A stretch of DNA of 64,000 nt from Escherichia coli (GTDB taxonomy: Bacteria > Pseudomonadota > Gammaproteobacteria > Enterobacterales > Enterobacteriaceae): assembly GCF_003018235.1 (NCBI RefSeq), contig NZ_CP027437.1, one strand, 5' to 3'. The notes below the pieces were generated by a model. The model saw only the letters and a program-made list of their open reading frames with translations, was not told where the DNA came from and did no database searches. Every line of letters starts with the position of its first letter. Position 1 is the first letter of the stretch. This document shows, piece by piece, positions 41,401 to 44,834 of the stretch. A program made the translations under genes and the position numbers.

Positions 41401-41599
41401 CTGTTTTTCACCTCTCCGTTGCGTTTATCCCGGGTGTAGATGAATTGTTCCTTTAAGAGCTTCCGGCTCTGCATGATGATATCCTTATATTTGGCATTCC
41501 TGAACAAGGAAGAGTAACAATGGGCAGGACGCGAGGGGAATAAATGATTTCTGAAAAGTCCGGTAGCGGAACATTACCGCCACCGGGAGAATTTGCACG

Positions 41600-42427
41600 T
41601 TAGCCGCCAAACTGGTCAGGATCGGGACCGAGACGCTTGCCCTGATCGAGTTTTGCAATTTCGCCGAGTTCGTCTTTGTCGAGACGGAAATCCCAGACAT
41701 CAAAGTTTTCGGCAATACGTGAAGGTGTGACCGATTTCGGGATCACCACCAGGCCGCTATCCAGATGCCAGCGGATAACAATCTGCGCCGGGGTTTTGCC
41801 GTATTTATCTGCCAGATCGCGAATGACTTTCTGATCGAAAACGCCTTTCCCTCCTTGCGCTAATGGGCTCCAGGATTCGGTCTGGATTTTGTGTGTCGCG
41901 TTCCAGGCATGTAGCTGGCGTTGTTGCATCAGCGGGTGAAGTTCGATCTGGTTTATCACAGGCGTCACGCCAGTTTCATCAATCAGGCGTTGCAAGTGAT
42001 GGATCTGGAAGTTGCACACGCCGATGCTTTTGATTAATCCCTCTTTTTGCAATTCGATCATGCCTTTCCATGCTTCGACATAATGGTCGATAGCGGGAAC
42101 GGGCCAGTGCATTAAGTAGAGGTCGATATAATCAAGCTGGAGTTTTTTCAGGCTGTCGAGCAGGGCTTCGCGGGGGCGCTTGTGGTCGTCGTTCCACAGT
42201 TTAGTGGTGATGAACAGTTCTTCTCTGTTGACTGAGGCATTTTTCAGGGCTTTGCCGACACCTTCTTCGTTCTTATAGGCCGCGGCGGTATCAATCGAGC
42301 GATAACCCACGTCTAACGCTTTTTGAATGGCGGTGATTACTTCCTCATTACTTGCTTGCCAGACGCCCAGTCCCAACTGGGGCATGACATTGCCATCCTG
42401 TAGCTTAATAACGGTTGGATTAGCCAT
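41600..42427 (-). CDS. dkgA: DkgA, 2,5-diketo-D-gluconate reductase A (aldo-keto reductase)
   Basis: 275-aa ORF matching DkgA. Confidence 0.9.
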   Translation of the reverse strand: MANPTVIKLQDGNVMPQLGLGVWQASNEEVITAIQKALDVGYRSIDTAAAYKNEEGVGKALKNASVNREELFITTKLWNDDHKRPREALLDSLKKLQLDYIDLYLMHWPVPAIDHYVEAWKGMIELQKEGLIKSIGVCNFQIHHLQRLIDETGVTPVINQIELHPLMQQRQLHAWNATHKIQTESWSPLAQGGKGVFDQKVIRDLADKYGKTPAQIVIRWHLDSGLVVIPKSVTPSRIAENFDVWDFRLDKDELGEIAKLDQGKRLGPDPDQFGG

Positions 42428-42531
42428 ACGTTCCTCCTTTATATGAACTCACCGGAGCAGGCTCCGGTGAGGTGTTGTGAACTTAAGTCTGGACGAAATG
42501 CCCGAAAACGAAAGTTTGAGGCGTAAAAAGC

Positions 42532-43695
42532 TTAGCGGGCGGCTTCGTATATACGGCGGCTGACATCCAGCGTAATGTCATGATTTTCGCCCAGTTGGGT
42601 CATACCGTGCTCTTCCAGTTTTTTCAACAAAGCCGGGATGGAGCTGCCGTCCAGACCGTAGTCGGAGAGGTGGGTCGGCACGCCTAATTGCTCAAAGAAA
42701 TTGCGGGTTGCGGCAATCGCGGCGTCAATACGCTCATCGTCGGAACCTTCTGTGATGTTCCAGACGCGTTCAGCATATTGCAGCAGCTTAGCGCGCTTGG
42801 TATCGCGTTTTTCATTCCACAGTGCAGGCAGGACGATAGCCAGTGTTTGTGCGTGATCCAGACCGTGCATCGCAGTCAGTTCGTGGCCTAGCATATGCGT
42901 TGCCCAGTCCTGCGGTACGCCAGCGCCAATCAAACCGTTCAGCGCCTGAGTCGCCGCCCACATAACGTTGGCGCGCACATCGTAGTTTTCTGGCTCTTTC
43001 AGGGCTTTCGGACCATCTTCGATCAGCGTCAACAAAATGCCTTCTGCGAAACGGTCCTGAATTTTGGCATCAACCGGTTTGGTAACATACTGTTCCACGG
43101 TGTGCACAAAGGCATCCACTACACCGTTAGCCACCTGACGCGGCGGCAGAGTGTAGGTATAAACCGGATCGAGCACGGCAAATACGGGTTGAACATGGGC
43201 AGAATGGAATGCCTGCTTGTCGCCTGTGGTTTTACGGGAGATCACCGCGCCTGCGTTGGATTCTGAACCGGTTGCTGGCAGCGTCAGCACACAGCCCATC
43301 GGGATGGCGCTTTTAATTTCTTTACCGCCCGTTTGTAGAATGTGCCACGGATCGATATTTTCCGGATAATTAGCCGCTGCGGCGATAAATTTGGTGCCGT
43401 CCAGTACAGAACCGCCGCCAACCGCCAGCAGGAAAGTCACTTTTTGTTCGCGAACCAGTTTCACGGCGTTCATCAGCGTTTCATAAGCCGGGTTTGGCTC
43501 AATACCGCCAAATTCCAGCACGTCCATGCCTTTCAGGGCATCCAGAACTTGATCGAGAACGCCGGTTTTTTTCACGCTGCCGCCGCCGTAGGTAATCAAT
43601 ACGCGAGCATCGTGAGGAATTTGTTCGCGTAAACCAGCGATTGCGCCTTTACCAAAAAGAATGCGGGTTGGGGTGTGCAGATTAAAGTTGTTCAT
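42532..43695 (-). CDS. yqhD: YqhD, NADPH-dependent aldehyde reductase
   Basis: 387 aa from [17 protein letters not shown]; start at internal Met of the longer ORF. Confidence 0.9.
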
Positions 43696-43831
43696 TACTT
43701 GCTCCCTTTGCTGGGTCAATATGAGGGCAGAGAACGATCTGCCTGATGTTTTTCATTGTGGTCGCCAGCGCCGTACCTCTCAATGCTCATTTCTGCCAAT
43801 GTCTTGCCTATTTCTCCAGAGTGCTGGAGAA

Positions 43832-44788
43832 ATGCTACAAAATTGCGCACAATCAAATTGCCGCATTATTCCTAAGAAATTACGCGATATGAAACGTGAA
43901 GAGATTTGCCGCTTGCTGGCGGATAAAGTTAATAAACTGAAAAATAAAGAAAATGAATTGTCAGAGCTGTTGCCCGATGTGCGTTTGTTGTATGGCGAGA
44001 CGCCTTTCGCACGTACACCGGTAATGTACGAGCCTGGCATCATAATTCTCTTTTCCGGGCATAAAATCGGTTATATCAATGAACGCGTGTTTCGTTATGA
44101 TGCCAATGAATACCTGCTGCTGACGGTGCCGTTGCCGTTTGAGTGCGAAACCTATGCCACGTCAGAGGTGCCGCTGGCAGGGTTGCGTCTCAATGTCGAT
44201 ATTTTGCAGTTACAGGAACTGTTGATGGACATTGGCGAAGATGAGCATTTCCAGCCGTCGATGGCAGCCAGCGGGATTAACTCCGCCACGTTATCAGAAG
44301 AGATTTTATGCGCGGCGGAGCGGTTACTCGACGTGATGGAGCGACCACTGGATGCGCGTATTCTCGGCAAACAGATCATCCGTGAAATTCTGTACTACGT
44401 GCTGATCGGACCTTGCGGCGGCGCGTTACTGGCGCTGGTCAGTCGCCAGACTCACTTCAGCCTGATTAGCCGCGTGCTGAAACGGATTGAGAATAAATAC
44501 ACCGAAAACCTGAGCGTCGAGCAACTGGCGGCAGAAGCCAACATGAGCGTATCGGCGTTCCACCATAATTTTAAGTCTGTCACTAGCACCTCGCCGTTGC
44601 AGTATTTGAAGAATTACCGTCTGCATAAGGCGCGGATGATGATTATCCACGACGGCATGAAAGCCAGTGCGGCAGCGATGCGCGTCGGTTACGAAAGCGC
44701 ATCGCAATTTAGCCGTGAGTTTAAACGTTACTTTGGTGTGACGCCGGGGGAAGATGCGGCAAGAATGCGGGCGATGCAGGGGAATTAA
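43832..44788 (+). CDS. yqhC: YqhC, AraC-family regulator of yqhD-dkgA
   Basis: 318 aa from [13 protein letters not shown]... with C-terminal AraC HTH; divergent from yqhD. Confidence 0.85.
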
Positions 44789-44792
44789 ATAC

Positions 44793-44816
44793 GTTCCCGG
44801 TACAGCAACCGGGAAC
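44793..44816. terminator. Hairpin between convergent yqhC and yghB
   Basis: Stem GTTCCCGGT / ACCGGGAAC, 6-nt loop; no strong T-run. Confidence 0.35.
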
Positions 44817-44834
44817 GGGGAAAATCGTCAGGCG

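Follow-up and report, generated by a model that had tools for sequence, protein, structure and literature searches.

A perfect 10-bp stem-loop lies between the yqhD and dkgA genes of Escherichia coli, and we observed that its structure, rather than its sequence, is under selection on the sense RNA. This hairpin is probably an intercistronic stem-loop which defines and protects the 3' end of a yqhD-only message. We infer that it partly uncouples yqhD from dkgA, and in E. coli it is possibly also a leaky terminator. Such elements belong to a known and fairly ordinary class; this particular site has never been described individually, and its prior traces are the supplementary tables of one paper and the half-coverage by an Rfam family.

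The window, i.e. the whole stretch of 64,000 nucleotides that was analysed, carries both genes on the minus strand, separated by a spacer of 104 nt, with the following features:

42532..43695, minus strand: yqhD CDS, NADPH-dependent aldehyde reductase of 387 aa, the upstream cistron
42525..42534, minus strand: yqhD stop codon UAA (42534..42532), then GC, then UUUUU, from the sequence and the spacer alignment
42448..42471, minus strand: stem-loop, with 5' arm 42471..42462 CUCACCGGAG, loop 42461..42458 CCUG and 3' arm 42457..42448 CUCCGGUGAG
42433..42439, minus strand: dkgA Shine-Dalgarno (SD) sequence AAGGAGG, A97-A104 being invariant or nearly so in 70 spacers
41600..42427, minus strand: dkgA CDS, methylglyoxal reductase of 275 aa, the downstream cistron, with its ATG at 42427..42425

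On the mRNA strand the spacer reads UAA-GCUUUUUACGCCUCAAA-CUUUCGUUUUCGGGCAUUUCGUCCAGACUUAAG-UUCACAACAC-CUCACCGGAG-CCUG-CUCCGGUGAG-UUCAUAUAA-AGGAGG-AACGU-AUG. It is identical in strain MG1655, where the hairpin has the coordinates 3156579-3156602, and the spacer region was found in 5410 of 5426 complete E. coli genomes.

The two genes are transcribed from a single YqhC-activated promoter upstream of yqhD, in agreement with the transcription start sites (TSS) counted in the tables of PMC10667835, and by gSELEX only one YqhC site was detected, in the yqhC-yqhD spacer (PMC8249747). Mutations that increase YqhC activity raise both the yqhD and the dkgA mRNAs (PMC8262776) and, in the presence of vanillin, YqhD and DkgA increase in parallel, by 35-fold and 41-fold, respectively (PMC6561319). 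Since both proteins are still co-induced to this extent, read-through past the hairpin must be substantial, and the hairpin is no strong barrier to transcription. We also looked for an internal dkgA promoter: a consensus scan called none in the spacer, the supplements of Kim 2012 and of SMRT-Cappable-seq hold no entry for one, and the tables of PMC10667835 give the operon one log-phase TSS only (3155303, Table S1), with no stationary-phase TSS and none in the spacer. A promoter at the conserved TC-CAGACT-TAA, which resembles a sigma-S/sigma-70 -10 element, is thus unsupported under the conditions that these data cover.

For the hairpin itself, the inverted-repeat tool gave two 11-nt arms spaced by 2 nt, equivalent to 10 perfect base pairs (7 G-C) closed by a 4-nt loop, with a predicted dG of -17.8 kcal/mol. 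The original prediction had been a perfect 10-bp stem-loop at 42448-42471 between yqhD and dkgA, and the inverted repeat was indeed found there; the distance to the dkgA SD, given as about 10 nt, was measured as 9 nt from the end of the stem to AGGAGG, the ATG following at 20 nt. The same prediction wrote the sequence with a CAGG loop: its arms are right, as they are identical on both strands, while its loop is the plus-strand text, that of the mRNA being CCUG. The hairpin dominates the predicted fold of the spacer, and the 131-nt spacer region has a z-score of -3.05. When we counted perfect stems of at least 10 bp with loops of 3-8 nt over the 64-kb window, we found 19 stem/loop combinations at 12 distinct sites, against a chance expectation of 0.37 combinations (sd 0.73) in 100 dinucleotide shuffles. 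Such stems are therefore non-random in the window, but they are also a common genomic feature, and roughly one half of the other ones have U-rich tails and look like terminators.

The conservation of the hairpin was then assessed with a DkgA scan that gave 80 species-representative loci of Enterobacteriaceae, i.e. 81 spacers with that of the window. The genera sampled include Escherichia, Citrobacter, Salmonella, Enterobacter, Lelliottia, Leclercia, Kosakonia, Phytobacter, Buttiauxella, Atlantibacter, Cedecea, Siccibacter and Trabulsiella, among others. The yqhD gene is directly upstream of dkgA in all 80 loci, the pair is also present in 7 further loci, and none of these 80 + 7 retrieved loci has a yqhD orthologue without dkgA downstream. 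The spacer is mostly 98-112 nt long, and 79 of the 81 spacers have a hairpin at the equivalent position (68 distinct sequences, mean dG -17 kcal/mol). The arm pairs differ widely from one species to another, for example CCAUCGGGGG/CCCCCGAUGG, UACCCCGCA/UGCGGGGUA and CCACCAGAGG/CCUCUGGUGG, and in Atlantibacter the purine/pyrimidine polarity of the arms is even reversed.

A sequence-only MAFFT alignment of the 70 distinct spacers was used to measure covariation. RNAalifold predicted the hairpin and no other structure on this alignment, and compensatory changes were present in 8 of the 9 aligned pairs. Paired cells amounted to 88.5%, compared with 76.0% in shuffles, and double-change cells numbered 108 where 30.7 were expected, a value that none of the 500 shuffles reached. 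The covariation score was 0.44 and fell to 0.04-0.16 when the 3' partner was slid by 1-3 columns. G-U or U-G cells were far more numerous than A-C or C-A cells (41 versus 2, p = 2e-10); it is therefore the mRNA-sense RNA that is selected, and neither a DNA palindrome nor an antisense transcript. The hairpin segment has a mean z-score of -5.3 in the 70 orthologous spacers, with 70/70 below -1.64. UUCG and CUUG are extra-stable tetraloops; several spacers have one or the other as their loop, which would point to selection for stability, not for a loop motif. This is a clean, covariation-backed case of an intercistronic 3'-end hairpin that lacks a U-tract and is kept across a whole bacterial family.

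One locus (L003, 2393-2503, from the GTDB representative labelled E. coli strain E69) has the loop CAGG where the window has CCUG, with an identical stem that is extended to 12 bp. Its loop is the reverse complement of that of the window, and the change resembles an inversion within a perfect palindrome.

An inverted loop of this kind, in one divergent E. coli-lineage genome, is a DNA-level event, and the 24 bp form a perfect palindrome except at their centre, as might be expected if the element were a dimeric transcription-factor operator or a cruciform located before dkgA. We nevertheless regard a DNA-level function as extremely improbable. The half-sites are not conserved (68 distinct sequences) while the pairing is kept, an excess of G-U over A-C is expected only for sense-strand RNA, the single gSELEX site of YqhC lies elsewhere, and no TSS is reported in the spacer in the tables of PMC10667835. 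Covariation and the G-U asymmetry together essentially refute an operator palindrome.

The hairpin resembles a canonical intrinsic terminator in several respects, i.e. a GC-rich stem within the range of about 5-14 bp, a short loop, the folding energy, and 3' ends located 8-9 nt past the stem, which is the distance expected for intrinsic termination. Unlike such a terminator, it has no U-rich tract and no upstream A-tract, and it permits a read-through sufficient for the roughly 35-40 fold co-induction of both proteins. The E. coli tail, UUCAUAUAA, starts with UU and contains 4 U in 9 nt. Over the 81 spacers, the 9 nt after the stem contain 2.6 U on average, with a single U in 22 of 81 and 1 U in 9 nt in many genera; the Enterobacter tail is AGCACCUGA. 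No conserved U-tract was found 3' of the stem across these 81 spacers, which argues against canonical intrinsic termination as the conserved function. A consensus terminator scan, which needs at least 5 T in 8, does not call the hairpin.

Published 3' ends are available for this region. Liu et al. (2023) re-analysed SEnd-seq data from MG1655 wild type, an rne-ts strain and pnp, rnb and rnr deletion strains (PMC10667835), and their Tables S3, S4 and S7 place three sites just past the stem:

42444, minus strand: RNase II stop (MG1655 3156606, stem +4)
42440, minus strand: RNase II start (MG1655 3156610, stem +8)
42439, minus strand: PNPase stop (MG1655 3156611, stem +9), abutting the dkgA SD

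In Table S3, the end at 3156606 represents 13.2% of ends in the wild type and 2.2% in the rnb deletion, and that at 3156611 represents 8.7% in the wild type and 0 in the pnp deletion, each mutant being a single replicate (PMC10667835). In Table S4, the stop at 3156606 and a start at 3156610 form an RNase II pair. Table S7 classes operon 401 (3155302-3157493, yqhD and dkgA) as a 'complex operon', that is, with an FPKM ratio of at least 3 between adjacent genes or an equivalent difference, and assigns to it 1 PNPase stop, 1 RNase II stop, 1 RNase II start, 2 termination sites and zero RNase E-dependent ends. A pair made of a PNPase stop and an RNase II stop is also listed at the true dkgA terminator, at 3157494 and 3157495. 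Because this terminator bears the same signature, the ends located at the hairpin do not separate release of RNA polymerase from trimming. The Term-seq tables of Adams et al. 2021 contain the dkgA terminator end at 3157494 and list no end in the spacer, which fits a minor, low-abundance end. The dkgA terminator end, at about position 41556 of the window, was missed by our consensus terminator scan.

The same ends could arise at a leaky intrinsic terminator, where RNA polymerase would release a fraction of the transcripts 8-9 nt past the stem, at UUCAUAUAA, and RNase II would trim 4 nt. The positions +8/+9 agree with this, the RNase II stop at +4 mirrors those of the dkgA and ygiN terminators in the tables of PMC10667835, and one could invoke the 2 termination sites called there for the operon as well as the 4 U, UU first, of the E. 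coli tail. Termination is also the default class for such stems, because U-rich tails clearly mark roughly half of the window's other perfect hairpins as terminators. We consider this explanation unlikely as the main function, in view of the lack of a call by the consensus scan, the unconserved U-tract (mean 2.6 in 9, single U in 22/81, AGCACCUGA in Enterobacter), the loss of the +9 end in the single-replicate pnp deletion (PMC10667835) and the equal induction of YqhD and DkgA (PMC6561319).

These data bear on the functions first put forward for the hairpin. A role as RNase processing or stability element is supported by the tables of PMC10667835, where the +4 end depends on RNase II and the +9 end on PNPase. 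As for a partial terminator that uncouples dkgA, 3' ends are present at the hairpin and could come from release as well as from trimming, and the lack of a conserved U-tract argues against classical termination as the conserved role. A condition-responsive attenuator is not supported by the results: RNAalifold finds no conserved alternative structure, and thus no mutually exclusive fold of the type of a regulated attenuator or riboswitch, and YqhD and DkgA rise in parallel (35-fold and 41-fold).

We therefore favour a block to exonucleases, for which the following mechanism can be proposed. Transcription from the single YqhC-activated promoter reads through yqhD into dkgA, and a minority of transcripts end just past the hairpin, at +4 and +8/+9, these ends depending on RNase II and PNPase according to the tables of Liu et al. 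Exonucleases would gain entry via endonucleolytic cleavage, or via diffuse or Rho-type termination, in the dkgA part; PNPase would stall some 9 nt short of the GC-rich stem, and RNase II would nibble on to about 4 nt. In E. coli, low-level hairpin-dependent termination at the weak UUCAUAU tail may add to these ends. The yqhD segment, together with a small 3'-UTR fragment that would be the Rfam RNA ES173, would outlive the dkgA segment, and one promoter would thus give unequal abundances of yqhD and dkgA transcripts by selective RNA processing and stabilisation, with full-length read-through still providing dkgA. The counterpoint to this reading is that the mapped ends come from one re-analysis with single-replicate mutants.

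Dar and Sorek (2018) described stable, U-poor stem-loops that stop PNPase and RNase II and thereby give transcripts their precise steady-state 3' ends (PMC6061677). The features of this class and of the SRPS stem-loops of Liu et al. 2023 (PMC10667835) are found at the yqhD-dkgA hairpin: a stable GC-rich stem, no U-tract and few U after the stem, a precise 3' end a few nucleotides downstream, and a polycistronic operon flagged for skewed abundance. The dependence of the ends on PNPase and RNase II is found as well, from literature tables based on single-replicate mutants. The hairpin is unlike these stem-loops in being located directly before the next SD and in showing a family-wide structural conservation that goes beyond what the class needs. 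It is also comparable to REP/BIME elements such as that of malE-malF, since both are intercistronic palindromes able to block 3' exonucleases and to stabilise the upstream cistron. Unlike them, it is single-copy, orthologous and vertically inherited, not dispersed. A REP-like repeat was rejected on these grounds: the sequence occurs at a median of 1 and a maximum of 2 places per genome, has one match in the window and carries no REP consensus.

Some natural variants of the spacer help to decide which of the two genes the hairpin serves. Insertions of about 80-130 nt, which we take to be ERIC/IRU-like palindromes from the consensus GTGAATCCCCAGGAGCTTAC...GTGACTGGGGTGAGCG, are present between the hairpin and the SD in five species (loci L034, L036, L045, L075 and L087). 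The hairpin stays strong beside a conserved block located upstream of it, and thus lies 97-146 nt from the ATG (computed for four of the loci). As these insertions are tolerated with the hairpin kept beside the block, the hairpin belongs to the 3' side of yqhD and is not tied to the SD by its spacing.

The second variant concerns Klebsiella and Raoultella, in which yqhD ends directly before an additional strong, terminator-like hairpin (-23 kcal/mol) that precedes the block and, in Klebsiella, has UUUUU after it. The loci are:

L083 3162-3311, L085 3162-3312, L086 2362-2512: extra-hairpin loci of Klebsiella and Raoultella

In two of the three (Klebsiella sp. and Raoultella) the original hairpin has only -7 to -10 kcal/mol left, which is consistent with redundancy beside an acquired terminator-like hairpin; in K. 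pneumoniae it still has 9 bp despite the extra hairpin upstream. Taken together, these two natural experiments favour a role on the yqhD side over one on the dkgA side. A secondary role in the dkgA leader is possible, because of the 9-bp stem of K. pneumoniae and of the tight distance from stem to ATG, which is 18-26 nt in all hairpin-bearing spacers without insertion.

That distance is also what first speaks for an element of the dkgA 5'-UTR, which could act as a 5' stabiliser, as a ribosome standby site or insulator, or as a docking site for a protein (e.g. CsrA) or an sRNA. The retention of block and hairpin past the extra hairpin of Klebsiella and Raoultella points in the same direction, and dkgA is among the modelled CsrA targets (PMC6028588). 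As the main function we find it quite unlikely. Five species tolerate ERIC-like insertions of about 80-130 nt with the hairpin intact, and the tables of PMC10667835 report neither a TSS nor an RNase E 5' end in the spacer. The loop has no GGA motif, the reversed arm polarity of Atlantibacter means that a pseudo-SD/anti-SD switch is not conserved, and long-range anti-SD pairing equals that of shuffled sequence.

Two switches were rejected among the candidates. A pseudo-SD/anti-SD switch within the hairpin arms was discarded on the polarity reversal in Atlantibacter. In the MFE structure of the E. coli spacer, the dkgA SD is paired with ACGCCUC, a stretch that directly follows the yqhD stop codon, and this suggested long-range translational coupling. 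Over the 70 spacers the pairing probability was 0.447, versus 0.445 in composition-shuffled segments (Wilcoxon p = 0.98). Concerning CsrA, the published biophysical model lists dkgA as a candidate target with possible dual regulation (PMC6028588). Within 42433-42471 (minus strand) of the window, both the SD and the hairpin's 5' arm contain GGA, the motif of the arm being not conserved.

Unusual spacers were noted at loci L034, L036, L045, L075, L079 and L087 (188-239 nt), at L071 and L072, and at L060, where two copies of the hairpin enclose an insertion of about 165 nt. The usual site of the ERIC/IRU-like elements is downstream of the hairpin and before the SD, with one case inside the conserved block. 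Two Buttiauxella genomes have a shorter palindrome instead of the hairpin.

The upstream part of the spacer contains two further features:

42483..42514, minus strand: conserved block CUUUCGUUUU-N6-AUUUCGUCCAGACUUAA, 32 nt, mean pairwise identity 0.85
42466..42529, minus strand: match to Rfam RF02753 'ES173 sRNA', 99 bits (gathering threshold 90)

The block, which includes the stretch UUUCGUCCAGACUUAA and a direct repeat of UUUCGU, is kept across about 85 enterobacterial species. Its identity of 0.85 compares with 0.54 at third codon positions of the flanking genes and 0.90-0.97 at first and second positions. It is weakly structured (mean z = -0.47), single-copy in each genome and devoid of annotation. 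A small ORF in the block was rejected by eye on either strand, as there is no conserved start and the antisense ATG relies on a variable CAT.

The ES173 family is reportedly derived from the RNA-seq survey of Raghavan et al. 2011. Its match is on the same strand of the same locus, starts 2 nt past the yqhD stop codon, covers the spacer from there and stops after 6 nt of the hairpin's 5' arm. Only these first 6 nt of the hairpin are covered, so the hairpin is not within the modelled family, and the boundaries of ES173 cut through the sole structure of the spacer that is under structural selection. The hairpin drawn in the Rfam consensus was rejected as a conserved element: its pairs are mostly invariant or broken, it shows no covariation, and the segment has a z-score of -0.47. 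At the gathering threshold, Escherichia albertii was the sole match among 14 loci from other species; the model thus recognises Escherichia only, while the block and the hairpin span the Enterobacteriaceae. The 5' end of ES173 is located at GC|UUU, in a U-run that is at least 90% conserved, and it may be an RNase E site, as it matches the motif RN|WUU quoted in PMC10667835. Combined with the 3' end mapped past the stem, it points to an RNA of about 86 nt, ending at the hairpin, as the real species, which the Rfam boundaries probably truncate.

An extended ES173 may thus begin at the U-run that follows the yqhD stop codon and reach 4 nt beyond the stem. It is conceivable, though we hold it rather doubtful, that block and hairpin together form a conserved and functional processed 3'-UTR RNA of this size (about 86 nt). 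The exposed block could then be a seed or a protein-binding site, acting in cis on dkgA or, alternatively, in trans on transcripts of the aldehyde/electrophile stress response. The block could also be the target of an sRNA or, at the DNA level, a site belonging to a promoter of dkgA.

From the point of view of the hairpin, the corresponding explanation is that it forms the stabilising 3' structure of a functional sRNA derived from the 3'-UTR, with ES173 extended to about 86 nt (MG1655 3156521-3156606) and the single-stranded block as seed or protein-binding site. The ES173 match (42529..42466) stops inside the stem, its 5' end fits the RNase E motif at the conserved U-run, an exposed conserved block (0.85 versus 0.54) ahead of a strong 3' hairpin is how base-pairing sRNAs are built, and block and hairpin stay together despite ERIC-like elements or extra hairpins. 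Several points make an sRNA improbable to us. The hairpin has no U-tail for Hfq, the literature gave no target, phenotype or RNA-binding-protein data, and the tables of PMC10667835 report no RNase E 5' end. The fragment may also be a mere decay intermediate, and the block could equally be a DNA-level site. Our searches of the literature found nothing on ES173 by name, and nothing on yqhD in combination with ProQ, RIL-seq or CLIP.

With its conservation well above that of synonymous sites, the 32-nt block is a concrete target for experiment and, if the RNA formed by block and hairpin were regulatory, it would constitute a hitherto unrecognised regulatory arm of the YqhC regulon. The operon itself is of practical interest. 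Of the NADPH-consuming aldehyde reductases that confer tolerance to furfural, glyoxal, glutaraldehyde and vanillin, the products of yqhD and dkgA are the main ones, and metabolic engineers make wide use of yqhD. A shared promoter, yet a partial uncoupling of the two genes at the RNA level by a conserved stem-loop, would be useful to know of when their activities are to be tuned or removed.

Two other palindromes are found nearby in the window. The first is a perfect 10-bp palindrome, ATTTCTCCAG-AGTG-CTGGAGAAAT, at 43810-43833, which ends at the yqhC start (ATG 43832-43834). As plus-strand RNA, it has the yqhC SD (GGAG) in its 3' arm and CUCC in its 5' arm, so that the SD would be sequestered; in the DNA, it is found about 63-86 bp upstream of the yqhD TSS, at the place expected for the activator site of YqhC. 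The second is a hairpin, CGTTCCCGGT-ACAGCA-ACCGGGAACG, at 44792-44817, located 4 nt past the yqhC stop codon, with a U-poor tail on the plus strand and a U-rich tail on the minus strand.
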